Source: Clostridia bacterium (lineage in GTDB: Bacteria > Bacillota > DAOUPZ01). From it: DNA of 64,000 nt. Below are positions 2,246 to 61,274 of the stretch, one piece after another (position 1 is the stretch's first letter; the number at the start of each line of letters is the position of its first letter). A program made the translations under genes and the position numbers. The notes beneath the pieces were generated by a model that saw nothing but the letters and a program-made list of their open reading frames with translations, ran no database searches and had not been told where the DNA came from. The stretch covers positions 116,623 to 180,622 of the forward strand of contig DAOUPZ010000004.1 in the NCBI GenBank assembly GCA_030625885.1, written 5' to 3'.

Positions 2246-2281
2246 TGTATGATGGGTATGCTCCATGCCAATAACGCCCCT

Positions 2282-3061: not shown

Positions 3062-3077
3062 CTTTTATTAATTCCTT

Positions 3078-30273: not shown

Positions 30274-30380
30274 ACACCCTACTCCATTTTTTAATTCATT
30301 TTCCTGTTTCAACCCAATCCCCCCTAAAAAAATAGTGATGGATATGAAATCCATCACTATTTTACCCCTAAGCACTCTAT

Positions 30381-44722: not shown

Positions 44723-45039
44723 ATAACGCCTCCTAAAGTTACTAATATCTCATAAAATTATATAATAAAACAACGAGATATCAACCTTATTATCGACAAA
44801 AATTTCTTGATTTTGTTATAATTATTATTGGTTTTCTACGGATATTGCAAAAAACCTCTTTATTTGTAGAAAACCAATAAAAAAAGACCCAAAGCACTAC
44901 ACCCTGGGCCTATCCTACTGCTTCTTTTATCTTTTCTTCTTTTATCTTTTCTTCTTTTACCGATCAGCTATTTAAATCTTCCATCATTTAAAACCCCAAC
45001 TTCATCATATAGAAGATCTCCATATCTTAATCCCTATCC

Positions 45040-45136
45040 TTAATCTTTTTCCTACCTGCTACCTGCTGTTCACTACCTGCTTCTTTTGTCTTTCATTCTT
45101 TTAAATGTAAACTGTCAATTGTCAACTGTCAACTGC
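45040..45136. repeat. Intergenic word-repeat element (cctacctgctacctgctgttcactacctgct; gtcaactgtcaattgtcaactgtcaactg)
   Basis: The 31-mer at 45051-45081 is identical to 9895-9924; a (gtcaact)n run follows; its reverse-complement word gacagttgacagt occurs at 63268-63290. Confidence 0.7.
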
Positions 45137-45892
45137 CTAAAACCCTTCCGCTTTTATTGCTGCTATAAATCGATTTGCGTTTGCCTTCTTTCTACAGGTT
45201 TCGCATTTTTTAATGTCAATATCATCTCCAAGCTTTTGGTATAGATAGGCTATTTCCTCTTCAGTCGCAAAATATTTTCCACACGCTTTGCATTGAACCA
45301 TTTTAAATGTTTTGCCCCAAATGGCCCGTGTTCCATTCTCCTCTAAATATTCAATCGCATTCGTCGGACAAACAGATGCGCAGGCACCACACCCAATACA
45401 AGGCTCAGACGGTTCGTCAAAAGGTGTACCCACTTTCTTTGCCGCCCCTCTAAAAACAGTATAAATCGCATTCGTCCCCATTGTCTCACAGGCCTTCACA
45501 CAAAGTCCGCATAACGTACATTTGTTTTCAGTATCCACTTTGCATCTATTAAACTCACGTACATCCTGTTGTTCCATCAGTTTCCTGATCATTTCACTAT
45601 TAGGCGCCATGGTATAATATAATTTTAGCAAGGTTTTTCTAATACGACGCAGTTTTTCATTATCCGTTACCACTTCTATTTCGCTTTGAATGGGATACGA
45701 ACAGGAAGCAACCCGTTTTGTAACGCCATTTTCAACAATTTCCACCATGCACAAGCGACAGGTTGCCAGACCGGGCAGCGCTTCAGAGTGACACAAAGTA
45801 GGAATATAAACATCATTTCGTTTGGCTGCTTCCAAAATGGTTTCACCATATTGTGCCTCTACCTTTTTCCCATCAATAATGATTTCCATCAT
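45137..45892 (-). CDS. NuoG/HndD-N-terminal-like iron-sulfur subunit ([2Fe-2S] + [4Fe-4S] clusters, C-terminal CxxC..CxxC), copy A
   Basis: 2Fe-2S ferredoxin motif CHSEALPGLATCRLCMVEI...C; His/Cys cluster CKVDTENKCTLCGLCVKAC; CIGCGACASVCP; no catalytic domain. Confidence 0.75.
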   Translation of the reverse strand: MMEIIIDGKKVEAQYGETILEAAKRNDVYIPTLCHSEALPGLATCRLCMVEIVENGVTKRVASCSYPIQSEIEVVTDNEKLRRIRKTLLKLYYTMAPNSEMIRKLMEQQDVREFNRCKVDTENKCTLCGLCVKACETMGTNAIYTVFRGAAKKVGTPFDEPSEPCIGCGACASVCPTNAIEYLEENGTRAIWGKTFKMVQCKACGKYFATEEEIAYLYQKLGDDIDIKKCETCRKKANANRFIAAIKAEGF

Positions 45893-45903
45893 GCTTCCCC
45901 CTT

Positions 45904-47742
45904 TTATTTCACTCTAACCGCATGAAACTGACAGTTATCCATACAAATACCGCATTTTGTACATTTTCCCTGATCTATAACGTGAAGTTGTTTTTTATCC
46001 CCTGAAATAGCGCCTACAGGACAACGCTTGGCACATACCGCACAACCCACACAAATCTTGGAATCAATATAGAACGCCGTCAAATCCTTACAAACCCCAG
46101 CCGGGCACCTCTTATTCTTAATATGTTCTTCAAATTCTACTCTAAAGTTTGCAATATTCGAAAGAACCGGATTGGGTGCTGATTTACCCAAAGCACAAAG
46201 GGAAGCTTCTTGAACCATTTGCCCAATTTCTACTAACAAATCAATATCGCCTTCTTGGCCTCTGCCTTCACAAATATCGGTCAAGATTTCCAACATCGTT
46301 TTAATCCCCTGCCGACAGGGCACACATTTCCCACAAGATTCTTCTGAGAGAAATTTCAAATAATACCGGGCAAATTCGACCATACAGGTCCGGTCATCAA
46401 CCACAATCATCCCACCCGAACCCATCATAGAACCTTCAGCAGTCAACGAATCAAAATCTACGGGTAAATCCAGCTTAGCTTCCGGAATACAGCCGCCGGA
46501 AGGACCGCCTGTCTGCACAGCCTTAAACTTTCGCCCCTTCGGAATTCCGCCGCCAATCTCAAAAATAATCTCCCGCAAAGTCGTCCCCATCGGTACTTCA
46601 ACTAAACCCGTATTATTGACCTTACCAACCAGCGCAAATACCTTGGTCCCGGGACTGTTTTCTGTCCCAATACTTCGAAAATAATCGGCACCCTTGTTAA
46701 TAATCACGGGTACATTTGTCCAAGTTTCGACATTGTTAATGACAGTAGGCTTCCCCCATAAACCCTTATCTGCAGGATAAGGCGGTTTAGGCACCGGTTC
46801 ACCAGTATTCCCCTCTATTGACCGTATCAGCGACATTTCCTCACCACAAACAAAGGCGCCGCCCCCTCTAACAATTTCAACATCAAACGAAAAGCCCGTA
46901 CCCAAAATATGTTCCCCTAAGAATCCCCTTTCACGCGCAGCAACAATCGCTCGCTTCATATTTTCCACGGCTAATCCATATTCATCACGAATATACAGGA
47001 ACCCATGATCGACCCCTATCGCATAACCACAGATGACCATTCCTTCCAATACCGCGTGTCCATCTCCCTCCAATACCGCTCGGTCCATAAACGCACCCGG
47101 GTCTCCTTCATCACCGTTGCAAATAACATATTTACATGTCCCTTCTGCTTGAGCCGCAAAAGACCATTTCAAACCGGTAGGAAATCCGCCGCCCCCTCTG
47201 CCGCGCAATCCTGATTTCTTGACTTCCTCAATAACTTCTGACCGCGTCATATCTTTTAATGCTTTTTCCAAAGCTTTGTAACCATCTCGCTCCAGATACT
47301 CGTCAATCTTACCCGGATCAATCAAACCTACATGACGCAAGGCAACTTTTTTCTGTTTACGATAGAATGTCCACTCATCGCGTTTAACCAGCTTCTTCTT
47401 TTGAATCTTATCCGTATATAATAACCGTTCTACCACTTCGCCCTTTAGAACAGTTTTTTCTATGATTTCCGATACATCTTCTACTTTCACTTTTATATAC
47501 GTGATATCATGAGGCAGAATGGTAACTAGCGGTCCATGCTCACAAAGGCCGTGGCAGCCTGTTGCTTTAATAGCAGGTGATGATTCTTTATCGCACTCAC
47601 ATTCAACCGTCATCGCCACTTCAACATTTAAGTAGCTTCCAGCTATATGCTTTTTAAAAGCTTCATAAACTTGCATGCTGTTATTTGCGATACAACCCGG
47701 ACCACAACAAACTAAAATCGTTAATCGTTTGCTACTTTGCAT
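45904..47742 (-). CDS. NuoF/HndC-like NAD(H)-binding flavoprotein subunit (N-terminal thioredoxin-like 2Fe-2S, FMN/NADH site, C-terminal 2x[4Fe-4S]), copy A
   Basis: GLRGRGGGGFPTGLKWSF NADH/FMN motif; N-terminal CCGPGC...C; C-terminal CVGCAVCAKRCP and CTKCGICMDNC ferredoxin motifs. Confidence 0.85.
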   Translation of the reverse strand: MQSSKRLTILVCCGPGCIANNSMQVYEAFKKHIAGSYLNVEVAMTVECECDKESSPAIKATGCHGLCEHGPLVTILPHDITYIKVKVEDVSEIIEKTVLKGEVVERLLYTDKIQKKKLVKRDEWTFYRKQKKVALRHVGLIDPGKIDEYLERDGYKALEKALKDMTRSEVIEEVKKSGLRGRGGGGFPTGLKWSFAAQAEGTCKYVICNGDEGDPGAFMDRAVLEGDGHAVLEGMVICGYAIGVDHGFLYIRDEYGLAVENMKRAIVAARERGFLGEHILGTGFSFDVEIVRGGGAFVCGEEMSLIRSIEGNTGEPVPKPPYPADKGLWGKPTVINNVETWTNVPVIINKGADYFRSIGTENSPGTKVFALVGKVNNTGLVEVPMGTTLREIIFEIGGGIPKGRKFKAVQTGGPSGGCIPEAKLDLPVDFDSLTAEGSMMGSGGMIVVDDRTCMVEFARYYLKFLSEESCGKCVPCRQGIKTMLEILTDICEGRGQEGDIDLLVEIGQMVQEASLCALGKSAPNPVLSNIANFRVEFEEHIKNKRCPAGVCKDLTAFYIDSKICVGCAVCAKRCPVGAISGDKKQLHVIDQGKCTKCGICMDNCQFHAVRVK

Positions 47743-48220
47743 CGACCATCCCTCCCTCTCTATATGATTCTAGAACCGCTCTTAATTTAGCAGGTGTCAA
47801 TTTCCCATAATACGATTCATTAATCATCATTACGGGGGCCAACGCACAGGAACCAATACAGTTAACAATTTCTAGAGAAAACTTTCCATCTGCAGTAGTC
47901 TGACCAGGATCAATCCCCAAAACGGCTTTAATCTCCGTAATTAAATTCATAGAACCTTTAATATGACAGGCTGTACCATCACAAACTTTAATAATATTTT
48001 CCCCCTTGGGTGTTAAACTAAAGGCTTTATAGAAAGTAACCACGCCATATACTTTAGTTAAAGGAACATCAAGATACTCACTTACCACTTCCAAGGATTG
48101 TTTGGGCAAATACTTGTATTTCCTTTGGATATCCTGCAATACGGCTAACAAAAAACGGGGTTCAGGCTTGTAAGTAGAAGCAACAACTAATGTTTCCTGT
48201 TTAATTTGTGATAAATCCAT
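47732..48220 (-). CDS. NuoE/HndA-like [2Fe-2S] thioredoxin-fold subunit, copy A
   Basis: CDGTACHIKGS...CIGSCALAP 2Fe-2S motif of the 24-kDa subunit family; start at MDLSQIK with GAGGGAGG RBS. Confidence 0.8.
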   Translation of the reverse strand: MDLSQIKQETLVVASTYKPEPRFLLAVLQDIQRKYKYLPKQSLEVVSEYLDVPLTKVYGVVTFYKAFSLTPKGENIIKVCDGTACHIKGSMNLITEIKAVLGIDPGQTTADGKFSLEIVNCIGSCALAPVMMINESYYGKLTPAKLRAVLESYREGGMVDAK

Positions 48221-48244
48221 CCTCTCAACCTCCCTCATTCATTT

Positions 48245-48400
48245 GGGTAAGTGGTAAGTAGGAAAAAGGTAAGTAAAAAATATAAAAAGCTAATAATTTT
48301 CAAAATAATAAAACTGTATAAGCTAACACTTTGTATATTATAAAAAATGTAAAAATAGACCGGCTTATTACATACCACTTACCACTTACCACTTACCTTA
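48245..48400. repeat. Intergenic word-repeat element (ggtaagtggtaagtaggaaaaaggtaagtaaaaa ... ccacttaccacttaccacttacc)
   Basis: Opposite-orientation copies of the (cttacca)n word flank an AT-rich segment between the AOR and NuoE-like genes of copy A; the same word occurs at 54985-55000 in copy B. Confidence 0.65.
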
Positions 48401-48423
48401 TTTTATGCTTTCTATAAATTAAG

Positions 48424-48455
48424 AAAAAGGAGAAGGAGCTCAGCTCCTTCTCCTT
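48424..48455 (-). terminator. Rho-independent terminator-like hairpin between AOR and NuoE-like genes, copy A
   Basis: ggagaaggagctgagctccttctcc perfect palindrome followed on the minus strand by ttttcttaatttat, 45 nt after the AOR stop. Confidence 0.55.
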
Positions 48456-48498
48456 TTCCCACTTTACTTATAAGCAGCTAATTTATCTTAACTTTTCA

Positions 48499-50361
48499 TT
48501 AATTATTCTTAGCTGAAGCCGCTTCTACAGCCCCTAGCATTTGTGCAAAAGCATCCTCTAAACCAAGCTCGACCATCTTATCTTTAGTGGGAACACCCGC
48601 TTGATCCCAACCTCGAAGTTGATAATATTCAGGAAGCATTTCATGTAAGCGGTTAACGCTGCCTTTATAGGAACCATTTTTTTGCGGCTCTTGCAAAAGT
48701 CTCTGTGGCAATGTATCGTCTTTACTTGTAAAGCCACACGCCATGTTAAATAACCGTTCTAAATTCCAAATTCTTTCCCCCGCTTTGAGTAATTCATCTG
48801 GACTATATTCAATACCCGTTGCTGCCGATACAACATTAGCAATAATATCAGCGCCAATTGCAAACGTTGTAAATAAACAGAAACCCGAAGCATCTACTGC
48901 GCCAGTCAAATCCTGGAATGCTTTACAGACACCTGCTTTTCCTTCTGTTACTGCCGGATCTAACTTCACGGGAATACCCAAAATTTCCGGAGCTGTCATA
49001 TACCCGCGCACATGGCAGCCACCACGATTATTGGTAGCATAATTTAAACCCATTCCCTGAAGTGTTCTGGGTTCATAAGCGGGCAATTCCTGTTTCTTAA
49101 CACTCATGGATAATTCCGGATGACCGTATTTCTCCGCTAAGCGATAAGAACCTTCCGCCAGTATATCACCAATATCTTCCCGGTAAGCCGTCTTAGTTAC
49201 CAAATCAGCTAAGATGCTCGCATTGCCAAACCTTAAATCACATCCGGCATCTTCGTTCGGCAGATAGCCGTTTTCATAAAGCTCCATGGCACAGGCTATC
49301 GTACAAGGCATGGAAATCGCATCCAATCCCAACTCATTGCAACGGAAGTTGGCTTGGCAAATCGCATCAATATCCTTGACACCACAGTCCGCACCAAAAC
49401 CCCAGCCTGCTTCATATTCGGGACCTTCTCCAAATCCTGCATATGGCTTGAATGTTCTGGTTACCCGACCACAACGCATCACACAGGAAAAGCAGCCTTT
49501 ATTACGCACCAAATTCTTATGTTCAATCATAAATTCACCACTGGTTTTATCTGCCCATTCTACCGTACCGGAATCACGGAAGTTACGTACCGGCAACCCA
49601 CCAGACTGATCTAAAATATTAATTAAAATTTGCGTACCATAAGTTGCTAAACCTGTACCCGTAACAGGATGTTCTAACAAAGCTTTTCGTGCTTCTTGGA
49701 TCGCTGCCATAAATTTTTCCCCATCAGGAACATGAACGGGATTCGTACCACGTACAACAATTCCCTTTAAATTTTTAGAACCCATAACCGCACCAACCCC
49801 AGTACGACCCGCTGCCCGATTCATTTCATTCATAATACAAGCTATTTTAGAAAGATTTTCCCCCCCAGGGCCAATACAAGCTACTTTAGCCATCTCATCC
49901 GTTTCTTCTTTTAACAGATCTGTTGTATCAGGTACTTCTTTGCCCCAGATATGATCTGCCGGACGAATTTCTACCTTGTCATTATTAATCCAGATATACA
50001 CTGGTTTTTCTGCTTTTCCTTCAATAACAACCACATCATAACCCGCATATTTCATTTCACTGCCAAAATACCCGCCGGAATTGGAACAAGCAATGGTCCC
50101 CGTAAGTGGTCCCCGCGTAATCACCATATATCGCCCGGCAGAAGGTGCCATGGTGCCTGTAAGCGGTCCTGTCACTAAATACATATTATTATCAGGACTT
50201 AAAGGATCGACGTTAGGACCTACTTCTTCGCAATACATTTTCGTCCCAAGTCCACGACCCCCAATAAAATCTTTCGCATATTTGGTATTTAATGGTTCCA
50301 TACTCGCTGTACCATTTGTCAAATTAACCCTTAAAATCTTATTTTGGTAGCTGCTCATCAT
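48499..50361 (-). CDS. Tungsten-type aldehyde:ferredoxin oxidoreductase (AOR family catalytic subunit), copy A
   Basis: 620 aa; AOR N-terminal domain (KILRVNLTNG...YIGGRGLG), pterin/[4Fe-4S]-binding region, C-terminal AOR domains; ~95% identical to copy B. Confidence 0.9.
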   Translation of the reverse strand: MMSSYQNKILRVNLTNGTASMEPLNTKYAKDFIGGRGLGTKMYCEEVGPNVDPLSPDNNMYLVTGPLTGTMAPSAGRYMVITRGPLTGTIACSNSGGYFGSEMKYAGYDVVVIEGKAEKPVYIWINNDKVEIRPADHIWGKEVPDTTDLLKEETDEMAKVACIGPGGENLSKIACIMNEMNRAAGRTGVGAVMGSKNLKGIVVRGTNPVHVPDGEKFMAAIQEARKALLEHPVTGTGLATYGTQILINILDQSGGLPVRNFRDSGTVEWADKTSGEFMIEHKNLVRNKGCFSCVMRCGRVTRTFKPYAGFGEGPEYEAGWGFGADCGVKDIDAICQANFRCNELGLDAISMPCTIACAMELYENGYLPNEDAGCDLRFGNASILADLVTKTAYREDIGDILAEGSYRLAEKYGHPELSMSVKKQELPAYEPRTLQGMGLNYATNNRGGCHVRGYMTAPEILGIPVKLDPAVTEGKAGVCKAFQDLTGAVDASGFCLFTTFAIGADIIANVVSAATGIEYSPDELLKAGERIWNLERLFNMACGFTSKDDTLPQRLLQEPQKNGSYKGSVNRLHEMLPEYYQLRGWDQAGVPTKDKMVELGLEDAFAQMLGAVEAASAKNN

Positions 50362-50364
50362 TGC

Positions 50365-50844
50365 TTATTCCACCTCCTCAAATATTTTTTTGAATTTTTC
50401 GGCATACATCGCTTTCTTAGTCAGCATACCTTTGTCCGCTTCCTTATATTCAATTGCCTCATTGGGGCAGAATTTAACACATTCCGGATCGCCGCCGCAC
50501 AAATCACATTTAATAACGCTTTTTGTTTCACTATCGTAGCTCGCATTACCAAATGGACAGGCACTGATACATAATTTACAACCAATACATTTATCTTTAT
50601 CCCATAAAACACCATTTGCTTCTTCATCACGATGCAGCGCACCTGTCATACAAACTTCGACGCAAGGGGCATCATCACAATGCATACACATCAACGGAAC
50701 ACCTAATCCTAAACGCTCCCAGACTAAAGCATGTACTCTCGACTTATTGGGATTAAATACGCCTTCATGTGCAAAGGAACAAGCGAGCTCACAATTACGA
50801 CAGCTTGCACACTTGCTTGGCTGAACCATTAAAATTTTCGCCAT
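50365..50844 (-). CDS. Polyferredoxin-like 4x[4Fe-4S] electron-transfer subunit (AorA-like), copy A
   Basis: Four CxxCxxCxxxCP-type motifs in 160 aa; stop overlaps the AOR start (translational coupling). Confidence 0.8.
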   Translation of the reverse strand: MAKILMVQPSKCASCRNCELACSFAHEGVFNPNKSRVHALVWERLGLGVPLMCMHCDDAPCVEVCMTGALHRDEEANGVLWDKDKCIGCKLCISACPFGNASYDSETKSVIKCDLCGGDPECVKFCPNEAIEYKEADKGMLTKKAMYAEKFKKIFEEVE

Positions 50845-50853
50845 CACTTCCCC

Positions 50854-51062
50854 GCTTCAATTTGATATTGAAGCAGGTTCCACCTCCTCGTATTATTATT
50901 TATCACCCTACAATGAAGCGCCTTCCTTTTCACCTCCTCAATTATTATTTATTTCAATGCTCCTTTGCACACTGGCAGGTATAAGAATTACTCCTTATGC
51001 CCTATCGCCCTGAATTCCCCCGTTCTTCTTGTGGAACTTCCAGGGTCGGAGATATGATTGCT
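50854..51062 (-). promoter_or_regulatory. Conserved 5' leader of ferredoxin-AOR unit, copy A (hairpin abutting RBS, two GAGGAGGTG motifs, ~100-nt conserved block)
   Basis: gcttcaat ttga tattgaagc hairpin at 50854-50874; the block at 50955-51060 is ~80% identical to 57578-57670 upstream of copy B. Confidence 0.45.
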
Positions 51063-51465
51063 TATACTTATATCATTTCAGACAATCATATATCATAAAT
51101 ATATGAAACTATTTCCTTTATATATACCTCTATTAAGGTGTTTTTAGAATACAATGATTCCCTTAGTTTTTATACGCTATATGATGGCATTAAAGTTTTA
51201 CATTTAGAATTGCCCCATCTTTCCTTCGCTTTTCCTGCAAACCTGCAATGTAAATTCTTGATTGCATGATATGTAGTCGTTTGATAATATCAAATGTTAT
51301 TTATTTATATTTAGTTCAGTTTCATTATATTCCTATCCATTTTATTGTACAAATTCCTCGTATTGTAATTTATATCTATAATATGGATTATAACGCATTT
51401 ATTTAATATTAACTGTTTACACCCTTTACTTTCGCGCTTTATCAATATCTTCCATAAGGAAAATA

Positions 51466-51495
51466 AAAAAAGACCCAAAGCCCTAGGCTTTGAGT
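51466..51495 (-). terminator. Rho-independent terminator after MoaD-like gene
   Basis: Minus strand agactcaaagcctagggctttgggtcttttttt: GC-rich stem plus U-run immediately 3' of the stop. Confidence 0.5.
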
Positions 51496-51774
51496 CTACC
51501 CTCCTGCTACAACAGGGAAAATAGATACTTGATCACTTGCTTGTAATTTTGTATGAATGCCATCTAAATGGGCAACATGCCGCCCATTTACCAATACAAT
51601 GATGAGATTATTCAAATCATCCTCAGTCTCATTAAACACCGCTTCTCTAAATTTCTTCCCATAATGCTGTGAAAGTTGCTGTAATAATGCCTGCAAATCA
51701 TCCGCTGGATCATTCCAGGTTGTTTCCTTTTCTCGGGTAAAATCACGGATATAAGCAAAATATTTAATATTCAT
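51496..51774 (-). CDS. MoaD/ThiS-family small sulfur-carrier-like protein (C-terminal Gly-Gly)
   Basis: 92 aa ending ...SIFPVVAGG; beta-grasp-sized; last gene of Nuo-like unit of copy B; absent from copy A. Confidence 0.5.
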   Translation of the reverse strand: MNIKYFAYIRDFTREKETTWNDPADDLQALLQQLSQHYGKKFREAVFNETEDDLNNLIIVLVNGRHVAHLDGIHTKLQASDQVSIFPVVAGG

Positions 51775-51789
51775 AAGTTCCCTCCCTTT

Positions 51790-51850
51790 TTTCAGCTCTT
51801 AGCAGTTAGCTTTTTCTTTTCCTAACTGCTAACTCCTAACTCCTAACTGC
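51790..51850. repeat. Intergenic word-repeat hairpin (ttagcagttagc...cctaactgctaactcctaactcctaactgc)
   Basis: agcagttag / ctaactgct inverted repeat plus (taactcc)n; same words as 9669-9692 in opposite orientation. Confidence 0.65.
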
Positions 51851-51902
51851 TTCTTTTTTCTTCACTCTTCCAGCAACTAAAGGGAGCGTTCTTTACTCTC
51901 TC

Positions 51903-52673
51903 TCAAATATCCAATTCTGCCTTTAACGCTTCCTTAAATTTTGCCGCATTCCCCTTTTGCTTACACTTTTCACACAATGCCATATCCATATCATTACCAA
52001 TCTTTTGCTTGACATAAGCAATTTCTTGTGCTGTAGCAAAATATTTACCGCATTCCTTACATTGAATCAATTCAAAGGTTTTATCCCAAATGGTTCTTAC
52101 CCCATTTTCTTGAGTCATTTGAATGGCTTCTGTTGGACAAACTGAAGCACATGCTCCGCACCCAATACAAGAATCAGAGGGTTCATCAAAAGGTGTGCCT
52201 ACTTTCTTTTCCGCCCCTCTAAATACAGTAGAAATGGCATTTGTACCCATTTCTTCACAAGCTTTTACGCATAGTCCACACAATACACAATTTTCTGCCA
52301 AATGTGTTTCCCCTTTATTAACCTGCAAGCGTTTTATTTCCGGTACATCATACTTTTCTTTTAACGCCTTAATATCTTTATTATGAGGGACACGCGCACT
52401 ATATAAATTGAGCAGCACATTTCTTGTTCTTCGTATGGTCTCATTATCAGTGGTAACTTCCATACCTTCATGAACAGGATAAGCACAAGATGCCACCCGC
52501 TTGGTCACACCGTTTTCTTTTACTTCCACCATACAAATCCGGCAGCTTGTAATGCCGGGTAATGCATCCGAATAACATAACGTCGGGATATCAATACCAT
52601 TGCGACGTGCTGCTTGTAAAATCGTTTCACCTTCTTGTACTGCTGCCTTTTTCCCATCAATGATAATTTCCAT
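51903..52673 (-). CDS. NuoG/HndD-N-terminal-like iron-sulfur subunit, copy B
   Basis: Same cysteine architecture as 45137-45892 (CYSDALPGITSCRICMVEV; CVLCGLCVKAC; CIGCGACASVCP; CKECGKY...CEKCKQK) at ~55-60% identity. Confidence 0.75.
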   Translation of the reverse strand: MEIIIDGKKAAVQEGETILQAARRNGIDIPTLCYSDALPGITSCRICMVEVKENGVTKRVASCAYPVHEGMEVTTDNETIRRTRNVLLNLYSARVPHNKDIKALKEKYDVPEIKRLQVNKGETHLAENCVLCGLCVKACEEMGTNAISTVFRGAEKKVGTPFDEPSDSCIGCGACASVCPTEAIQMTQENGVRTIWDKTFELIQCKECGKYFATAQEIAYVKQKIGNDMDMALCEKCKQKGNAAKFKEALKAELDI

Positions 52674-52687
52674 AATCTCCCCTCCTT

Positions 52688-54484
52688 CTATTTTACTTTT
52701 ATTGCATTAAATTTACAACTGTCAATACAAATACCGCATTTTGTACATTTCTCCGAATCAATCACGTGAAGTTGTTTCTTTTCTCCCGAAATAGCGCCTA
52801 CCGGACAGCGTTTAGCGCATAAGGTACATCCTTTACAGGCTTCTGCATCAACATAAAACTCTGTTAAATCCTTACAAACCCCCGCCGGGCATCTCTTATT
52901 CTTAATATGCTCTTCAAACTCTTCCCTAAAGTTCTCGATATTTGAAATAACAGGATTAGCCGCTGTTTTCCCTAATGCACAAAGGGATGACTCTTGAATC
53001 GCTTCTCCCATTTCTAATAATAAATCAATATCGCCTTCTTGGCCTCGACCTTCACAAATATCACCTAATATTTCCAGCATTCTCTTAATACCTTCACGGC
53101 AGGGGGCACATTTTCCGCAAGATTCCCCATAAAGAAATTGCATATAGAAACGAGCTACTTCGACCATACAAGTCCGATCATCCATAACAACCAACCCACC
53201 AGAACCCATCATGGAACCTTCTGCTGTCAAGGAATCAAAATCAACCGGTAAGTCTAATTTAGATTCTGGAATACATCCCCCGGAAGGCCCGCCTGTTTGT
53301 ACGGCTTTAAATTTTCTGCCACCGGGAATACCTCCGCCAATATCAAAAATAAGTTCTCTTAAAGTAATCCCCATCGGTACTTCTACCAGACCTGTATTTG
53401 CAATTTTACCAACCAGTGCAAAAACCTTGGTCCCCGGACTGTTTTCCGTACCAATAGAACGGAACCAATCTGCTCCTTTATTGATAATAAGCGGTACATT
53501 GGACCATGTTTCTACATTATTGATAATGGTAGGTTTACCCCATAACCCTTTATCTGCTGGGAATGGCGGCTTCTGAACCGGTTCACCCGTCTTCCCTTCT
53601 ATCGAAGCGATCAACGCTGTTTCTTCCCCACAAACAAAAGCCCCGCCGCCTCTAACAATCTCGGCATCAAAGGAAAATTCCGTCCCCAAAATGTTTTCGC
53701 CTAAGAAGCCTCTTTTTTTGGCCGCTTCGATTGCTTTTTTCATGTTCTTAACAGCCAATCCATATTCATCCCGAACATAGAGAAAACCACGATTAGCACC
53801 AATAGCATAGGCACATATAGCCATTCCTTCTAAAACAGTATGTGGATCACCTTCTAATACTGAGCGATCCATAAATGCGCCCGGGTCTCCTTCGTCAGCA
53901 TTACAAATAACATATTTAGGTGACCCCTCTGCCTTAGCAGCAAACGACCATTTCAAGCCAGTCAAAAATCCACCACCGCCCCTGCCACGCAGTTTGGAAT
54001 GCTTCATTTCATCAATCACTTCTTGAGGTTTCATGTTCTTCAAAACCTTTGCAATGGCTTTGTAGCCGTCTCTTTCAATATAATCATCAATACTTTCGTT
54101 ATCAATATGTCCTACATTGCGCAACGCTAAACGCATCTGCTTTTTATCAAACGTCCAATCTTCTTTAGACTGAACTTTTGCTTTTTGCTGTGCATCAAAA
54201 TATAAAAGACGATCAATTACTTCATTATTAGTAATACTTTTTGCAATAATCTCCGGAACATCGGAATCTTTGACATGAACATAGGTAATCTGCTGAGGGA
54301 GAATATGTACGAGCGGCCCTTTTTGACAAAGTCCATGACAACCTGTTCCCTTAACATCCGGGATCAGCTCTACATCTAACTCTAGCGCTTTTAATTGTTC
54401 TTTAAATGCATCATAGATCTTCTGACTGCCATTTGCCAAACAACCCGTACCACAGCAAACCAGAATCGTTTTTTTACTTTCCAT
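52688..54484 (-). CDS. NuoF/HndC-like NAD(H)-binding flavoprotein subunit, copy B
   Basis: GLRGRGGGGFLTGLKWSF; N-terminal CCGTGC; C-terminal tandem ferredoxin motifs; ~80% identical to copy A. Confidence 0.85.
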   Translation of the reverse strand: MESKKTILVCCGTGCLANGSQKIYDAFKEQLKALELDVELIPDVKGTGCHGLCQKGPLVHILPQQITYVHVKDSDVPEIIAKSITNNEVIDRLLYFDAQQKAKVQSKEDWTFDKKQMRLALRNVGHIDNESIDDYIERDGYKAIAKVLKNMKPQEVIDEMKHSKLRGRGGGGFLTGLKWSFAAKAEGSPKYVICNADEGDPGAFMDRSVLEGDPHTVLEGMAICAYAIGANRGFLYVRDEYGLAVKNMKKAIEAAKKRGFLGENILGTEFSFDAEIVRGGGAFVCGEETALIASIEGKTGEPVQKPPFPADKGLWGKPTIINNVETWSNVPLIINKGADWFRSIGTENSPGTKVFALVGKIANTGLVEVPMGITLRELIFDIGGGIPGGRKFKAVQTGGPSGGCIPESKLDLPVDFDSLTAEGSMMGSGGLVVMDDRTCMVEVARFYMQFLYGESCGKCAPCREGIKRMLEILGDICEGRGQEGDIDLLLEMGEAIQESSLCALGKTAANPVISNIENFREEFEEHIKNKRCPAGVCKDLTEFYVDAEACKGCTLCAKRCPVGAISGEKKQLHVIDSEKCTKCGICIDSCKFNAIKVK

Positions 54485-54959
54485 GGTTCTCCCCTCCTCT
54501 ATAACGATTGATAATTTCTCTCAATGAAGCTGGTGTTAAATTACCATGATATTCATCATTAATTACAACAACGGGTGCTAATCCACAAGCGCCCACACAA
54601 CCAACGGTTTCTAATGAAAATTTACCATCTTCGCTCGTCTCACCCGGCTCTATTCCAAGAATATCTTTTACTTCTTGTATCAAATTCATAGAACCTTTAA
54701 CATGACAGGCTGTGCCGTCGCATACTTTAATAATATTCTCACCTTTGGGTTTTAAACTTAACGCTTTATAAAAAGTAGCAACACTATAAACTTTTGTCAG
54801 TTCCACCCCAACATACTCCGCAACAATCACCAAAGATTCTTTAGGTAAATAATTATATTTTCTTTGCACATCCTGTAGTATGGCTAATATGAATCGCCGT
54901 TCAGGCTTGTAACTAGAAGCAATCGCCAACGTTTCCTGTTTAACCTGTGATAAATCCAT
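54474..54959 (-). CDS. NuoE/HndA-like [2Fe-2S] subunit, copy B
   Basis: CDGTACHVKGS...CVGACGLAP; ~85% identical to copy A. Confidence 0.8.
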   Translation of the reverse strand: MDLSQVKQETLAIASSYKPERRFILAILQDVQRKYNYLPKESLVIVAEYVGVELTKVYSVATFYKALSLKPKGENIIKVCDGTACHVKGSMNLIQEVKDILGIEPGETSEDGKFSLETVGCVGACGLAPVVVINDEYHGNLTPASLREIINRYRGGENHGK

Positions 54960-55002
54960 CCCTCAACCTCCCTCATTCATTTTGGTAAGTGGTAAGTGGG
55001 AA

Positions 55003-55036
55003 AAAGGAGAAGGAGCTCATCTCCTTCTCCTTTTTC
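55003..55036 (-). terminator. Terminator-like hairpin between AOR and NuoE-like genes, copy B
   Basis: ggagaaggagctcatctccttctcc with flanking A/T runs; same position as the hairpin in copy A. Confidence 0.5.
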
Positions 55037-55075
55037 CACTTTACTTATAAGCAGCTAATTTATCTCAACTTCTCA

Positions 55076-56938
55076 TTAATTATTTTGAGCCGCAGCCGCT
55101 TCTACAGCCCCTAGCATTTGTGCAAAAGCATCCTCTAAACCAAGCTCGACCATCTTATCTTTAGTGGGAACACCCGCTTCAGTCCAACCACGCAATTCAT
55201 AATACTCTGGAAGCATTTCATGTAAACGGTTGACGCTGCCTTTATAGGGACCAAATTTTTGCGGCTCTTGCAAAAGTCTCTGTGGCAATGTATCATCTTT
55301 ACCCGTAAAGCCACACGCCATATTAAATAACCGTTCTAAATTCCAAATTCTTTCCCCCGCTTTGAGTAATTCATCTGGACTATATTCAATACCTGTTGCT
55401 GCCGATACAACATTAGCAATAATATCAGCACCAATAGCAAACGTTGTAAATAAGCAAAAACCCGAAGCATCTACTGCACCAGTTAAATCCTGGAACGTTT
55501 TACAGACACCTGCTTTTCCTTCTGTTACTGCTGGATCTAATTTCACCGGAAGACCCAAAATTTCAGGGGAAGTCATATACCCGCGCACATGACAGCCGCC
55601 ACGGTTATTGGTAGCATAATTTAAACCCATCCCTTGAAGTGTTCTCGGTTCATAAGCCGGCAATTCCTGTTTCTTAACGCTCATCGATAATTCCGGATGA
55701 CCGTATTTCTCCGCTAAGCGATAAGAACCTTCCGCCAGCATATCACCAATACCTTCCCGGTAAGCCGTCTTAGTTACTAAATCAGCTAAAATACTGGCAT
55801 TGCCAAAGCTTAAATCACATCCCGCATCTTCTTTAGGCAAATACCCGTTTTCATAAAGTTCCATGGCACAAGCAATGGTACAAGGCATGGAAATCGCATC
55901 CAATCCCAACTCATTGCAACGGAAGTTAGCTTGGCAAATTGCATCGATATCATCAACATCACAATCGGCACCAAAACCCCAGCCTGCTTCATATTCAGGC
56001 CCTTCACCAAATCCAGCATATGGTTTATAGGTTTTAGTCACTCGACCGCAACGCATCACGCAGGAGAAGCAGCCTTTATTACGCACCAGATTCTTATGTT
56101 CAATCATAAATTCACCACTGGTTTTATCCGCCCATTCTACCGTACCGGAATCACGGAAATTGTGGACAGGCAGCCCACCAGACTGATTTAAAATATTAAT
56201 CAAAATTTGCGTTCCGTATGTTGGAAGACCTGTTCCTGTAACAGGATGTTCAGCCAATACTTTACGCGCTTCTTCGATCGCTGCCATAAATCTTTCCCCA
56301 TCAGGAACATGAACGGGATTCGTACCACGTACAACAATTCCCTTTAAATTTTTAGAACCCATAACCGCACCAACACCTGTACGACCTGCCGCTCGATTCA
56401 TTTCATTCATAATACAAGCTATTTTAGAAAGGTTTTCCCCCGCTGGGCCGATACAAGCTACTTTAGCCATCTCGTCCGTTTCTTCTTTTAACAGATCTGT
56501 TGTATCGGGTACTTCTTTGCCCCAGATATGATCTGCTGGATGAATTTCTACCTTGTCATTATTAATCCAGATATACACTGGTTTTTCCGCTTTTCCTTCA
56601 ATAACAACCACATCATAACCCGCATATTTCATTTCACTGCCAAAATACCCGCCGGAATTAGAACAAGCAATGGTCCCCGTAAGTGGTCCCCGCGTAATCA
56701 CCATATATCGCCCGGCAGAAGGTGCCATGGTGCCTGTAAGCGGTCCTGTCACTAAATACATATTATTATCAGGGCTTAATGGATCGACGTTGGTTCCTAC
56801 TTCTTCATAATACATTTTCGTCCCAAGTCCACGACCACCGATGTAGTCCTTAGCATATGATTCATTTAAAGGTTCCGTACTGACTTTACCCGTTGTCAAG
56901 TTAATTCTTAAGACTTTATTTTGGAAACTGTTAGCCAT
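55076..56938 (-). CDS. Tungsten-type aldehyde:ferredoxin oxidoreductase (AOR family), copy B
   Basis: Start placed at [14 protein letters not shown], overlapping the ferredoxin stop as in copy A; long stretches identical at nucleotide level to copy A (e.g. 55090-55178 vs 48513-48600). Confidence 0.9.
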
Positions 56939-56939
56939 C

Positions 56940-57419
56940 TTATTCCACCTCCTCAAATACTTTTTTGAATTTTTCCGCATACATGGCTTTCTTGGCCATC
57001 ACGCCTTCATTTGCTTCCTTATATTCAATCGCCTGATTAGGACAAATCCTCACACATTGTGGATCCCCACCGCATAAATCACATTTGATAACCTGTTTTG
57101 TTTCATTATCATAACTGGCATTACCAAAAGGACAGGCACTAACGCATAATTTACAACCGATACATTTGTTTTTATCCCATAAGACACCATTTGCTTCTTC
57201 ATCACGATGCAATGCCCCCGTTGGGCAAACCCCGGCACACGGAGCATCATCACAATGCATACACATCAATGGAACACCTAATCCTAAGCGTTCCCAAACC
57301 AATGCATGTACTCTTGATTTATTGGGATTAAATACACCTTCATGTGCAAAGGAACAAGCCAGTTCACAGTTACGGCAACTAGCGCATTTATCCGGATGAA
57401 TCATTAAAATTTTTGCCAT
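56940..57419 (-). CDS. Polyferredoxin-like 4x[4Fe-4S] subunit (AorA-like), copy B
   Basis: 160 aa, ~92% identical to 50365-50844. Confidence 0.8.
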
Positions 57420-57428
57420 CACTTTCCT

Positions 57429-57670
57429 GCTTCAACTTTAAATAAATGGCACATCTACTTTAAGTTGAAAGCAGGTTTCACCTCCTCTATATTATTTTTT
57501 TAGGAAAAGCCGATACTTACCCTTTCACCCCCTCAATCATATTCATCTCATTTTTCATTTCTATCATGGCTCTTTTGCACATTGGCAGATATAAAAATTG
57601 CTTTTTATACCCTATCGCCTGGAAATTCACACTTTGTGTGGAATTTCTAGGTTCAGAGATATGATTATGT
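57429..57670 (-). promoter_or_regulatory. Conserved 5' leader of ferredoxin-AOR unit, copy B
   Basis: Imperfect hairpin cttcaacttta...tttaagttgaag next to the RBS; GAGGAGGTG motifs; conserved block with near-palindrome cctggaaattcacac ttt gtgtggaatttctagg. Confidence 0.45.
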
Positions 57671-57871
57671 TGTACCATGTGATGCGAATTATTTTGATAT
57701 TATCAAACTAAGTTTTATATTTATTTAATTTATTTTTATTATATCAACTGATGTTTTATTAATCCAACTTTTTTATCTCTTAATTATTAAGTTTAATACC
57801 TAATAAGGCAATTTTTCTTACCCTTGCTCTTTATATATCTTTTTTTCATGTTTTTTCATTTAAAATAAAAA

Positions 57872-57909: not shown

Positions 57910-58455
57910 TTATACGACTAATTTTTTCTTTTCTTCCAACACCCCTGCTTTAGCAAGAAACTTAAACAACAGAGGAATAAACATCAATTGCATTATAATA
58001 CCAGGAAGTCCTTTTATAATAGAACCATATACAAATATCAAGGGATTTACGGGCAATCCTCCAAATCCGGTTATATGAACCATGACCCATACAACCATTC
58101 CAGCTGCCATGCGCCCGCCTAACATCGCAATTAGTAATGATATCCAAATATTGCGCCCTCTTTTTTCAAAAGTAAAACCAGTCAAAAATCCATATACACC
58201 TAATTCAAAGAACATGATCGGCAACATGGGTATTACGGGCGGCATACCCGTTAATAATGTGCTTAATAACACAGTAAGCATACCTATTAATGCACCCCAA
58301 CAAGGTCCTAACATTAATCCTGCAATCAAAACGGGAATATGCATCGGTAGGAAAATTGCACCCCCAATGCCGACAGCATGAAACCCCATCGGTAATACAA
58401 TGCCCATTGAAATGAGAAATGATCCATTTAACATCATTTTAGTCTTTATCTTCAC
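57910..58455 (-). CDS. ECF-transporter substrate-specific (S) component, ThiW-like
   Basis: 181 aa, ~6 TM; GIVLPMGFHAVGIGGAIFLPMHIPVLIAGLMLGP resembles ThiW-type S components; no adjacent EcfA/T genes or riboswitch seen. Confidence 0.55.
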   Translation of the reverse strand: MKIKTKMMLNGSFLISMGIVLPMGFHAVGIGGAIFLPMHIPVLIAGLMLGPCWGALIGMLTVLLSTLLTGMPPVIPMLPIMFFELGVYGFLTGFTFEKRGRNIWISLLIAMLGGRMAAGMVVWVMVHITGFGGLPVNPLIFVYGSIIKGLPGIIMQLMFIPLLFKFLAKAGVLEEKKKLVV

Positions 58456-58755: not shown

Positions 58756-58924
58756 ATAAGCATAGTTTGCTAATGTAAAATTAATTTTCATATAATCAAA
58801 CAATCATCTTTATTTAAATATTAAAAAAGGAGGTAAACAAAACACGAGTTAAAATTTTCGTAGTATCCTATGCACAAATATTAATGTGCATAAAATTGAA
58901 ACTAATGATGAGGAGGAGAAAACT

Positions 58925-60082
58925 ATGAAAGAAGAAGTATTTGGTTATTTCATGCCGCCAGTCAGTTTAATGGGTGTTGGTAGTTACAAAAAAATCGGGG
59001 AACAAATTAAAGCCCTCGGAAAATCAAAAGCATTAATCGTTACTGATCAAGGAATTATTAAAGCAGGTGTTGCTAAAAAAGTAACTGACATATTAGACGA
59101 AGCCGATATTAAATACGTTATTTTTGATGGTGCTCAACCTAATCCTACGGTTGGCAATGTAGAAGACGGCCTAAAAGTATTAAAAGATAACGACTGTAAT
59201 GTTGTTATTTCATTAGGTGGCGGCAGTCCACATGACTGTGCTAAAGGGATCGCCCTTGTAGCCACCAATGGCGGCAGTATTAAAGACTATGAAGGATTAG
59301 ACCAATCCCCAAAACTCATGATGCCATTGATTGCTGTTAATACAACTGCTGGTACAGCCAGTGAAATGACCCGGTTTGCAATCATAACCGATACCGACCG
59401 CCATGTTAAAATGGCTATTGTTGACTGGCATACAACACCAACCATTGCCATTAATGATCCTCTTTTAATGATGGGTATGCCTGCCAGTCTGACAGCTGCA
59501 ACTGGTATGGATGCATTAACTCATGCCATTGAAGCTTATGTTTCCACAATCGCAACACCCATTACCGATTCTAATGCAATTGCAGCCATTGAACTAATTT
59601 CCAAATATTTAAGAAGAGCTGTTAAAGACGGTAATGATACGGAAGCTCGTGACAAAATGGCTTATGCTGAATTTCTTGCTGGTATGGCATTCAATAATGC
59701 AAGCTTAGGATATGTTCATGCCATGGCACATCAATTGGGTGGTTTCTATGACCTGCCACATGGTGTATGTAATGCCATTTTATTACCCCACGTTCAAGCT
59801 TACAATGCCAAAGTCGTACCGGAAAGATTTATTGCGATCGCTAAAGCTATGGGCGAAAACGTTGAGAGCTTAAACCCTGAAGAAGCTGCAAAAGTTGCCA
59901 TTGAATCCATTAAGAAACTTTCAAAAGATGTTGATATTCCTGCCGGTGTTAAAGAATTGGGCGCTAAAGAAGAAGATCTTCCAACTCTAGCAAGTAATGC
60001 CTTAAAAGATGCCTGTGGTTTAACCAATCCAAAACAACCTACTAAAGAAGAAGTTATAGAGATTTATCGTCAAGCTATGTAA
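58925..60082 (+). CDS. Iron-containing (group III) alcohol dehydrogenase
   Basis: [14 protein letters not shown]-binding motif and metal-binding histidines ([13 protein letters not shown]); 385 aa from ATG preceded by GAGGAGGAG RBS. Confidence 0.85.
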
Positions 60083-60500: not shown

Positions 60501-61274
60501 CTACAACACCACATTATGAACCATCTCAGACAAAACTCGTCCATATTTTACCACTATTTTAATCATGTCTTTTATCCGCTTATCTGTCATATGTGACGGA
60601 GGGCCGGAAACAGAAACCGTGGCAATAATTTTATCACCAAAGCCAAATACCGGTGCGGCAATCGTGATCGATTCATCATGCTCCCCATCATTAGCTGCAA
60701 AGCTGCGCAATCTTATTTCCATCAACTCTTTATTTAAAACTTCACGATCGGTAATGGTGTTTTTTGTAAAACGCGGCATCCCCGTTTGCTCTAATATTTT
60801 TTCTCGTTCCCCTTCTCCTAAAAAAGCCAAAAATACTTTCCCTGAAGCACTTGCATGCATAGGCACACTGTTCCCAATCGGGTTATGGCTATGAAGCGGC
60901 GAATAGACTTCTCTAGCTAATACACAGGTGGCTTTATTCCCACTATAAATATAGAAATATACACTTTCACTTACTTCATTCTGTAACTCACGTAAAACAG
61001 CATCAATATCCTGATAGGGAAAATCTTTACGAAGATAACATTCACCAACACGAAAAGCTTCTGGCCCAATACGATACTTCTTATTTTCTTGGTTTTGTAT
61101 CACATACTTTTCCATCACCAGTGTCGCTAAATAATGATGCATGGTGCTTTTGTTAATTTTTAATGATTCTACTAAGTCCGTAATACTCACTTCTTGATTT
61201 AATGTAGCCATATAGCTTAAAATTTGCAAACATTTTTGGGCAGAACCAATAATCTTTACTTCTTTTTGTGTCAT
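60501..61274 (-). CDS. IclR-family transcriptional regulator
   Basis: N-terminal wHTH (ITDLVESLKINKSTMHHYLATL) and C-terminal IclR effector-binding domain; 257 aa. Confidence 0.85.
   Translation of the reverse strand: MTQKEVKIIGSAQKCLQILSYMATLNQEVSITDLVESLKINKSTMHHYLATLVMEKYVIQNQENKKYRIGPEAFRVGECYLRKDFPYQDIDAVLRELQNEVSESVYFYIYSGNKATCVLAREVYSPLHSHNPIGNSVPMHASASGKVFLAFLGEGEREKILEQTGMPRFTKNTITDREVLNKELMEIRLRSFAANDGEHDESITIAAPVFGFGDKIIATVSVSGPPSHMTDKRIKDMIKIVVKYGRVLSEMVHNVVL

Follow-up and report, generated by a model that had tools for sequence, protein, structure and literature searches.

Tandem operons predicted to encode Class IV (WorABCSL) tungsten aldehyde oxidoreductases in an uncultured Bacillota bacterium

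The window analysed here, a 64-kb stretch (64,000 nucleotides) of contig DAOUPZ010000004.1 from the Clostridia bacterium assembly GCA_030625885.1, carries two five-gene units that lie head to tail on the minus strand, copy 2 upstream (57422-51903) and copy 1 downstream (50847-45137). The open reading frame map gave the order worS-worL-worC-worB-worA in each of the two, with a 92-aa frame (worX, 51774-51496) between them, and reproduced exactly the coordinates and the shared gene order that the initial annotation of this DNA had given for two adjacent copies. Comparison of the encoded proteins supports the prediction that both units encode a Class IV WOR (WorABCSL, or Wor-Bfu) in a type-1 operon. 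In the account that we favour, and in which we have considerable confidence, the region would consist of two independently transcribed tandem type-1 operons of this class, with the mechanism, the control by riboswitch and hairpin, and the duplication history set out below. Class IV WORs are composed of WorL, WorS, WorA, WorB and WorC; their operons follow either a type-1 (SLCBA) or a type-2 (CBASL) order, and the position of worX varies. The 102 members counted make up between less than 1% (as given in the text) and 2.9% (Table 1) of all WORs (PMC13328260).

Domains were assigned to the unit proteins by Pfam and NCBIfam profile scans, and these confirmed the aldehyde oxidoreductase (AOR)-, NuoE-, NuoF- and NuoG-type assignments that had been proposed for the subunits. 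WorS is a polyferredoxin (Fer4_11/Fer4_7) with four CxxCxxCxxxC-type sites, WorL carries AFOR_N (E 1e-84) and AFOR_C (E 1e-145), WorC is a NuoE-like 2Fe-2S_thioredx protein, WorB combines Complex1_51K, SLBB and NADH_4Fe-4S with an N-terminal 2Fe-2S_thioredx piece and two C-terminal Fer4 domains, and WorA has Fer2_4 and a Fer4 dicluster, as at the N-terminus of NuoG/HoxU. All five proteins matched, nearly full length, chains A-E of PDB entry 9MQX, the 2025 cryo-electron microscopy structure of the Acetomicrobium mobile (A. mobile) electron-bifurcating tungstopyranopterin aldehyde oxidoreductase WorABC(SL)3 (Feng et al. 2025, PMC12318220). The E values were 7.7e-244 for WorL (9mqx_D), 1.4e-45 for WorS (9mqx_E), 1.6e-58 for WorA (9mqx_A), 1.8e-46 for WorC and 6e-212 for WorB (9mqx_B). 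9MQX was the top PDB match for WorL, WorS and WorA; WorB and WorC scored slightly higher against other bifurcating Bfu enzymes (the family is described in PMC9304861) than against 9MQX. Thus, what the initial annotation had recognised as an AOR joined to a HydABC/Bfu-type NuoEFG-like scaffold matches the published WorABCSL. Its remark that such an enzyme had been described only very recently and in few organisms also holds, but the class is better known than that implied: biochemistry, a cryo-electron microscopy structure, a 102-member census and control by a tungsten-cofactor (Tuco) riboswitch have been published, and nothing here changes the picture of the enzyme mechanism. The features of the region, in the order in which they would be transcribed, are as follows (Moco, molybdenum cofactor; R1, a covariance model introduced below).

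57693-57707, no strand assigned: candidate operator upstream of the copy-2 leader, a perfect 7-1-7 palindrome TTTGATAtTATCAAA that overlaps a -35-like TTGATA
57555-57671, minus strand: copy-2 5' leader with a predicted, diverged P3-less Moco/Tuco riboswitch aptamer (covariance model R1)
57426-57475, minus strand: stem-loop, candidate sequestor of the ribosome-binding site, ending just before the worS2 start and spanning the likely ribosome-binding site (folding)
56940-57422, minus strand: worS2, 160-aa 4x[4Fe-4S] nanowire subunit (Pfam/NCBIfam; 16/16 Cys)
55076-56938, minus strand: worL2, AOR-family catalytic subunit; the frame is open back to 56980 and the start equivalent to that of copy 1 is 56938
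54999-55037, minus strand: stem-loop of about 17 bp with no U-tail, about 40 nt past the worL2 stop (folding)
54474-54959, minus strand: worC2, NuoE/BfuC-like [2Fe-2S] subunit (Pfam/NCBIfam, ligand alignment)
52688-54484, minus strand: worB2, NuoF/BfuB-like subunit for flavin mononucleotide (FMN) and NAD(H), with N-terminal [2Fe-2S] and C-terminal 2x[4Fe-4S]
51903-52673, minus strand: worA2, truncated NuoG/BfuA-like adaptor, 256 aa (Pfam/NCBIfam, Cys alignment)
51496-51774, minus strand: worX, MoaD/ThiS-like, 92 aa, GG end (TIGR01687, Pfam ThiS)
51471-51497, minus strand: intrinsic terminator closing the copy-2 unit (hairpin search and folding)
51280-51294, no strand assigned: palindrome TTTGATAaTATCAAA, upstream of the copy-1 leader, overlapping a promoter-like TTGATA-16-TATCAT
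50944-51063, minus strand: copy-1 5' leader with a predicted P3-less Moco/Tuco riboswitch aptamer (RF01055, R1)
50851-50877, minus strand: stem-loop, candidate sequestor of the ribosome-binding site, directly 5' of the worS1 start
50365-50847, minus strand: worS1, 160 aa, 4x[4Fe-4S] nanowire subunit with a C-terminal helix (full-length match to 9mqx_E)
48499-50361, minus strand: worL1, 620 aa, AOR-family tungstopterin catalytic subunit (9mqx_D and 1aor matches)
48422-48460, minus strand: 18-bp stem-loop after worL1, followed by a 145-bp insertion not in copy 2
47732-48238, minus strand: worC1, 168 aa (Pfam, 9mqx chain match)
45904-47742, minus strand: worB1, 612 aa, BfuB-like flavoprotein (full-length matches to bifurcating HydB chains and 9mqx_B)
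45137-45892, minus strand: worA1, 251 aa, truncated BfuA-like adaptor (9mqx_A match, AlphaFold2 model)
44885-45100, minus strand: remnant of the worA-worX spacer (45100-45047) and terminator (44911-44885), by homology to the worX flanks of copy 2

The start of worC1 probably lies a few codons past the listed ATG, because that ATG falls within the Shine-Dalgarno sequence GAGGGAGG.

The residues expected to bind the cofactors are kept throughout both units. Alignment of WorL to 9mqx_D and to 1aor (E 2.9e-206) showed that the CxxCxxxC...C cysteines, the Glu of EYE, the catalytic His and the DxxGxC pterin motif are retained, and the [4Fe-4S] cysteines and the active-site His are present in both copies. 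WorL is therefore unambiguously a member of the AOR family, and not of a molybdenum-dependent family outside it, as had been allowed for initially. Its three top PDB matches, AmWOR1 WorL, PfAOR and AaAOR, all belong to clade 87 of the 92-clade WOR tree according to PMC13328260. Membership of the Class II benzoyl-CoA reductases (BamB-I) was rejected, as BamB (4z3w) is distant (E 2.5e-65 vs 1e-244 for AmWOR1 WorL) and no Hdr-like genes occur nearby. WorS keeps 16 of 16 cysteines in both copies and aligns end to end with 9mqx_E, including the C-terminal helix LxKKxxYAEKFKKI, the predicted nanowire-assembly element, and the four Cys ligands of WorC are likewise intact in both copies. The initial annotation had described the 51-kDa-like subunit as carrying a [2Fe-2S] domain at its N-terminus and a 2x[4Fe-4S] domain at its C-terminus, and the profile domains and ligands agreed with this in both copies: WorB is intact in its N-terminal four cysteines, FMN and NADH loops (GxRGRGGGGF(P/L)TGLKW and GGGAFVCGEE), B1 cluster CxxCxxC...C (ESCGKCxPCRxG...LCALG), H/C/C site (Zn/B2-site motif HIKNKRCPAGVC) and eight C-terminal cysteines. 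Neither copy thus shows the defective FMN/NAD(H) site, or the lack of extra FeS domains, that had been named as reasons to doubt the assignment. A 14-residue insertion with two extra cysteines, LNVEVAMTVECECDKESSP, was seen at residues ~38-52 of WorB1, in the N-terminal [2Fe-2S] domain; it is absent from WorB2 and most homologues, and an insertion occurs at this position in the HydB of T. kivui.

WorA ends in a helix and has sites for one [2Fe-2S] cluster and two [4Fe-4S] clusters as well as a Cys4 (zinc-finger) site, and the corresponding 4+4+4+4 cysteines are invariant in 19 family members and present in both copies. The same 19-member alignment showed no Cys/His motif at residues 64-124, which indicates that the His-ligated A3 cluster is absent. 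The initial description of a ~250-aa NuoG-like fragment without a catalytic domain was correct (251 and 256 aa), but its list of clusters was incomplete, as it omitted the second [4Fe-4S] site, the Cys4 site and the C-terminal helix. WorA matched only residues ~1-250 of the 571-aa FeFe_hydrog_A6 model, and no H-cluster domain was found. Residues 2-242 of WorA1 align to residues 5-242 of 9mqx_A, and its AlphaFold2 model (pLDDT 75, with a helix at 230-247) gave TM scores of 0.81/0.82 to 9mqx_A at 42% identity, compared with 0.58 or less to every other chain. A bifurcating [FeFe] or [NiFe] hydrogenase of the HydABC(SL) type was rejected, since WorA ends after the ferredoxin-like domain and the zinc finger. 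No open reading frame for an FAD-type NAD(P)+ reductase subunit (WorN/AorC) was found in or beside either unit, the extra genes being NuoE-, NuoF- and NuoG-like, and because this gene is absent the units do not fall into Class III (AorABC type). The worX protein belongs to the MoaD family (TIGR01687, 75.5 bits against a cut-off of 49.5; Pfam ThiS match) and, in line with the earlier statement that a MoaD-like gene accompanies one copy only, worX is present only downstream of worA2.

Among characterised systems, A. mobile WOR1 has the same five subunits and the same predicted cofactor sites, and its WorA likewise has no A3 cluster, a Cys4 zinc-finger site and an adaptor helix at the C-terminus. 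The C-terminal helix of its WorS is common to the window proteins, in which F149 and I152 are kept and F145 is replaced by Y. The two differ in operon type (type-2 CBASL in A. mobile, type-1 SLCBA here), at WorS K143 (A here) and WorA Y238 (N here), in number (two tandem copies here) and in source, A. mobile being a member of the Synergistetes and the window coming from an uncultured Bacillota organism. The WOR1 operon of Eubacterium limosum (E. limosum; wor1LSXABC; PMC11725836, PMC13390469) is, like the present ones, of type 1 and from the Firmicutes. It includes a ThiS/MoaD-like worX and is preceded by a P3-less Tuco riboswitch with a hairpin that sequesters the ribosome-binding site, and expression of its worS and worL exceeds that of the other genes about 3-fold. 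However, worX lies between worL and worC in E. limosum, whereas in the window only a stem-loop is found at that position and the single worX follows worA2; moreover, one bifurcating WOR operon has been reported in E. limosum. In the Class III WOR of Aromatoleum aromaticum (AorABC, 8C0Z), the large subunit is homologous to WorL (8c0z_A, E 8.5e-198) and the polyferredoxin to WorS (8c0z_C, E 2.4e-38), and the latter likewise forms a nanowire via its C-terminal helix, but electrons pass to a single FAD-containing NAD+-reducing subunit (WorN/AorC) where the window encodes a three-subunit Bfu module instead. Over their full length, WorB and WorC are homologous to HydB and HydC of HydABC, NiFe-HydABCSL and NfnABC (8A6T, 7T2R, 7Q4V, 7P5H, 9N5U), with WorB scoring up to 763 bits against 8a6t_B, and the FMN/NADH site and FeS complement of HydABC/Bfu are common to WorB/WorC. 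In contrast to those enzymes, WorA has no H-cluster or other catalytic domain, no A3 and no A5, and the third substrate would be handled by the separate WorSL module.

On the model of the homologous A. mobile enzyme, WorL would convert aldehydes to acids at a tungsto-bispyranopterin site; that the metal is tungsten rather than molybdenum is suggested by AOR-family membership and by the P3-less Tuco-class riboswitch described below. Electrons would leave through the [4Fe-4S] cluster of WorL to the four clusters of WorS, and several WorSL units, linked via the C-terminal helix of WorS, would form a wire that docks on the C-terminal helix of WorA. WorA would relay the electrons along A4-A2-A1 to the FMN of WorB, where they would be split between NAD+ and ferredoxin (via WorC and the C-terminal clusters of WorB). 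The enzymes should therefore couple aldehyde oxidation to the joint reduction of NAD+ and ferredoxin, and the whole reaction may also run in reverse.

About 210 bp upstream of each worS is also duplicated, and the leaders carry, by eye, the CUCCGA...CCUGCC...AAAGGAG signature of the Moco RNA motif. A whole-window Rfam search at the gathering threshold returned only tRNA and no riboswitch; a local search of 701 nt matched the copy-1 leader (51063-50944) to RF01055 at 35.5 bits (E 1.1e-6), with the P3 stem deleted. For comparison, scanning GTDB species representatives and JGI metagenomes with a WorA profile yielded 23 other loci with worL and worA, their flanks being limited to 10 kb. A covariance model built from relatives only, with the window sequences left out (R1), scored 66.6 bits on copy 1 and 57.3 bits (E 6e-13) on copy 2 (57671-57555), and detected the aptamer upstream of worS in eight related loci; at this position L005 (55.5 bits) and L012 (38.6 bits) also exceeded the RF01055 threshold. 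The P1, P2, P4 and P5 architecture is present without P3, and in an 11-sequence alignment 19 of 26 pairs showed compensatory changes, and paired cells amounted to 87.6%, compared with 74.4% in shuffles (0/500 reached the observed value) and at most 54% in slid controls. The copy-2 leader has substitutions at otherwise invariant positions, and its P1 change from CUCC to CUCU is compensated by GGAG to AGAG. P3-less representatives of the Moco motif have been tied to Tuco genes (Regulski et al. 2008, PMC2408646), and in E. limosum wor1 such a riboswitch is accompanied by a hairpin sequestering the ribosome-binding site (PMC11725836). Both leaders here contain a stem-loop ending a few bases before the worS start codon, and by analogy with wor1 these are candidate sequestors. 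Each operon would then be headed by a P3-less Moco-family riboswitch and a hairpin over the ribosome-binding site, in which case production of the enzymes probably depends on the availability of the cofactor. L005, an uncultured Clostridium metagenome-assembled genome, has a second RF01055 riboswitch directly after worA (10900-11016), and this one scores higher (70.5 bits).

Each riboswitch leader is preceded, at a distance of ~220 bp, by TTTGATAnTATCAAA, a perfect 15-bp palindrome that overlaps a -35-like hexamer. Its only exact matches in the window are at 51280-51294 and 57693-57707, and a version with two mismatches occurs at 58786-58800, ~90 bp upstream of the start of an Fe-type alcohol dehydrogenase gene. 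It may be an operator for one of the two IclR-type regulators encoded nearby; it was not found in 163 comparison loci. Identification as an FNR box was rejected, the half-site spacing being 3 nt and not 4, as was identification as a cre/CcpA site, since it is unlike such sites.

The internal terminators mentioned in the initial annotation proved to be real stem-loops: a near-identical perfect hairpin stands ~40 nt past the worL stop codon in both copies, of 18 bp in copy 1 (dG -38.2 kcal/mol, z -6.9) and ~17 bp in copy 2 (dG -41.4 kcal/mol, z -9.0). Strong hairpins (z <= -2.8 within 110 nt after worL, against mononucleotide shuffles) were found in 13 of the 23 related loci, their sequences being unrelated. 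In E. limosum the wor1L and wor1S transcripts are ~3-fold above worXABC 'for unknown reasons' (PMC11725836), and the A. mobile complex contains ABC and SL at 1:3 (PMC12318220). By analogy, the stem-loop may attenuate read-through or protect the upstream message and so set the SL:ABC ratio; it would probably raise the worSL message above worCBA, fitting a 3:1 subunit ratio. The uncoupled expression of AOR and Nuo-like proteins that the terminators had seemed to make possible is thus less in keeping with the hairpin than is the published 3:1 SL:ABC ratio, and the element is a cis-acting candidate for the cause of the 3-fold worSL excess in E. limosum. The 145-bp insertion of copy 1 (48270-48414), between this hairpin and worC, carries repeats of GGTAAGTGGTAAGTGGTAAGTGG; these are complementary to CCACTTACC motifs that immediately precede worC.

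The two units have not diverged evenly. Protein identity between the copies is 87.5% for WorS, 93% for WorL, 70% for WorC, 73% for WorB and 63% for WorA, and nucleotide identity is 91% for worL and ~71% for worCBA. Along the units, identity runs at ~75% in the leader, 82-87% in worS and 88-98% in worL, peaking at 97-98% in the 5' part of worL, and then falls abruptly at the hairpin to 57-79% in most of worCBA; the longest identical run, of 113 nt, is in worL. Synonymous divergence (dS) is 0.35 for worL (0.04-0.55 along the gene), 1.2 for worS and a saturated 1.6-2.8 for worC, worB and worA, and the ratio of nonsynonymous to synonymous divergence (dN/dS) is 0.05-0.12 throughout. For each of the five subunits, the nearest relative of one copy is the other copy, and horizontal acquisition of one worCBA module is therefore not supported. 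A relative from a sister sample has a copy-2-type WorB (96%) and WorA (84%), so the split between WorB1 and WorB2 predates that speciation. Downstream of worA1, the spacer (78%) and the terminator (81%) are identical to this extent to the worX flanks of copy 2 (51869-51817 and 51508-51462) with ~280 bp of worX gone, and it follows that worX was deleted from copy 1. The mosaic of a close worL and distant worCBA points to gene conversion centred on worL. On the simplest view, a six-gene unit with worX as one of its genes would have been duplicated in tandem long ago; worX would then have been lost from copy 1, and ongoing gene conversion would keep worL, and in part worS and the leader, alike while the WorCBA modules diverge under purifying selection. 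A worX homologue separates worL from worC in 14 related loci. Placement after worA, as here, is a local rearrangement and falls within the variability described in PMC13328260.

A more far-reaching reading is that one wire serves two plugs, gene conversion keeping WorSL near-interchangeable so that the same wire docks on two diverged WorABC modules. The modules do differ at an FMN/NADH-adjacent residue (Tyr vs Phe) and in the WorA docking helix, and their nucleotide or ferredoxin/flavodoxin partner, their redox poise or the direction they favour could be different as well, with the post-worL stem-loop setting the 3:1 wire-to-plug ratio; we regard this as speculative and rather unlikely.

Different functions for the operons have to be weighed against bifurcating aldehyde oxidation. 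The enzymes might be simple NAD(P)+-linked aldehyde oxidoreductases in which WorABC serves only as a diaphorase, in the manner of the AorABC FAD subunit, and coupling to ferredoxin is not obligatory. Aldehyde oxidation (~-560 mV) is thermodynamically able to reduce either acceptor alone (PMC9304861), NAD-linked bifurcation was not demonstrated for the E. limosum WOR (PMC13390469), and WorB1 has Tyr at PP[F/Y]P, where WorB2 has Phe, Tyr at this position having been tied to non-bifurcating enzymes (PMC7311640). However, this residue (position 337 counted on chain 7p5h_B vs 367 printed in PMC7311640) is Arg or His, mostly Arg, in most WorB homologues and His in the bifurcating A. mobile enzyme, so that the marker does not transfer to WorB and was rejected as a discriminator there. 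Both WorB copies also keep the N-terminal [2Fe-2S] and C-terminal 2x[4Fe-4S] domains and the bifurcating-BfuB markers GGPSG and DEGDPGAFM (PMC7311640), and PMC9304861, citing Schut et al. 2021 for the demonstration of bifurcation by A. mobile WOR1 in that year, states that the enzyme reduced neither NAD+ nor ferredoxin without the other; an uncoupled diaphorase thus appears improbable. The second possibility concerns direction: reduced ferredoxin and NADH might drive acids to aldehydes, which the Fe-type alcohol dehydrogenase would reduce to alcohols. That gene (group III; 58886-60082, plus strand) is divergent from worS2 at a distance of 1.46 kb, much as the 1.5 kb noted initially, ethanol formation in C. 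autoethanogenum draws on AOR-dependent acid reduction (PMC12727526), and the bifurcating WORs of Methanofollis have been linked to alcohol metabolism (PMC13328260). The dehydrogenase nevertheless belongs to its own, opposite-strand unit and is separated from the copy-2 operon by an ECF transporter gene, the characterised homologues have been assigned to aldehyde detoxification, and no sequence feature fixes the catalytic direction. Reversal as the physiological direction is conceivable on this evidence, if unlikely.

The tandem arrangement itself could be an artefact, two strains or loci having been joined in assembly at the near-identical worSL repeat, or one of the copies could be decaying. 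An independent short-read Logan assembly (SRR14270297) breaks at the repeat and has the two worCBA segments only as separate 3-kb contigs ending at repeats, and identical runs in worL reach 113 nt. Exact-sequence look-ups with window proteins likewise returned only Logan contigs of 2-3 kb, broken at the repeats. Yet the worCBA modules differ at ~29% of nucleotides, which is far more than strains would vary, and a single read set yielded both; the junction worA2-worX-terminator-promoter-leader-worS1 consists of unique sequence with no break in the window; and all ten open reading frames are full length with a low dN/dS and complete ligand sets, so neither copy is decaying. We consider such an artefact very improbable. 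Several points weigh against our account more generally. The adjacency of the copies rests on one assembly, and WorB1 has the Tyr discussed above. The copy-1 riboswitch lies 0.5 bit under the curated RF01055 gathering threshold (36), and the copy-2 leader has no RF01055 match at E <= 10, being found only with the subfamily model. The post-worL stem-loops lack a convincing U-tract, the control of the hairpin survey was mononucleotide shuffling only, and the effect of the stem-loop on transcript ratios is conjecture. Bifurcating activity was not demonstrable for the partially purified E. limosum homologue (PMC13390469), and that of A. mobile is ~1000-fold below its dye-linked activity. The tupABC, moa and moe genes, for which a check of the neighbourhood had been suggested, were searched for in the 64-kb window and none was found. 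Finally, the tungsten content, NAD+/ferredoxin coupling, subunit ratio and catalytic direction given here are all deduced from homology.

The tandem pair of Class IV operons had been called unusual, and a second tandem unit was present in 0/23 comparison loci within their 10-kb flanks; L005 has an extra lone worL paralogue (1427-3229) upstream of its operon. No mention of tandem or paralogous bifurcating WOR operons was found in the literature searched. The top WorA match in GTDB species representatives was 56%, and the metagenome scan gave mostly short or distant contigs, with four more Wor-Bfu loci. The SLCBA order is found in about 20 Firmicutes loci and CBASL in the Methanofollis locus L021 and in L094. 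No worX was found at tblastn E <= 1e-3 in L021 (a Methanofollis metagenome-assembled genome), L019 (a Methanocorpusculum one) or L094, and archaeal clusters are described as lacking WorX (PMC13328260). In the closest related wor locus, L082 (Logan SRR13776099), a ZMP/ZTP riboswitch (65.7 bits, 13354-13435) occurs ~3 kb downstream of worA, before a PFL-like glycyl-radical enzyme and activase, and a gene for a sigma-54 activator with GAF/PAS domains is upstream of the operon. WorA-like 250-aa proteins together with worC and worB, with no AOR gene nearby, are common in metagenome-assembled genomes of Dehalococcoidia, Syntrophales, Planctomycetota and Myxococcota (L024, L028, L030, L037, L041, L043-L047, L052 and others); they may represent further Bfu types in which the truncated adaptor is combined with another third module.

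Directly upstream of copy 2 is the gene for an ECF S component (57910-58455), which has its own terminator and a weak resemblance to the FolT family (26.6 bits vs a cut-off of 60); if its substrate were pterin-related, this would be of interest. Just upstream of the alcohol dehydrogenase/wor region, a gene for a NosP-like (FIST_N/FIST_C) putative nitric-oxide sensor (318 bits, below the equivalog cut-off) adjoins a complete IclR-family regulator gene, with a second open reading frame nearby that comprises an IclR C-terminal domain only (sites 61400-62551, 60501-61274 and 63627-63980). Apart from these two IclR-type regulators, the NosP-like FIST protein and the ECF S component, the remaining window contains a flagellar operon (1-21.6 kb), sporulation-related genes and housekeeping genes (CodY, HslUV, TrmFO, TopA, CinA, FtsH-like, MiaB, RodZ, ScpAB, TrpRS and the CCA-adding enzyme). 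Two CinA-domain frames are adjacent, one full-length (28574-29821; MoCF_biosynth, KH and CinA) and one with the CinA domain only (29818-30375); the MoCF_biosynth domain belongs to CinA, and is no evidence of pterin-cofactor biosynthesis genes. TopA is at most ~63% identical to that of any named organism (Desulfotomaculia-type genera), and the host is a poorly sampled, spore-forming, flagellated Bacillota organism.

What is new here is modest: the tandem pair with its concerted wire genes and diverged bifurcating modules, the relocated single worX and the positionally conserved stem-loop. The locus adds a well-preserved example of this rare bifurcating class of tungsten aldehyde oxidoreductases, in a Bacillota lineage that has been poorly sampled, and the pair amounts to a natural experiment in modularity, in which the wire genes evolve in concert and the bifurcating modules diverge.

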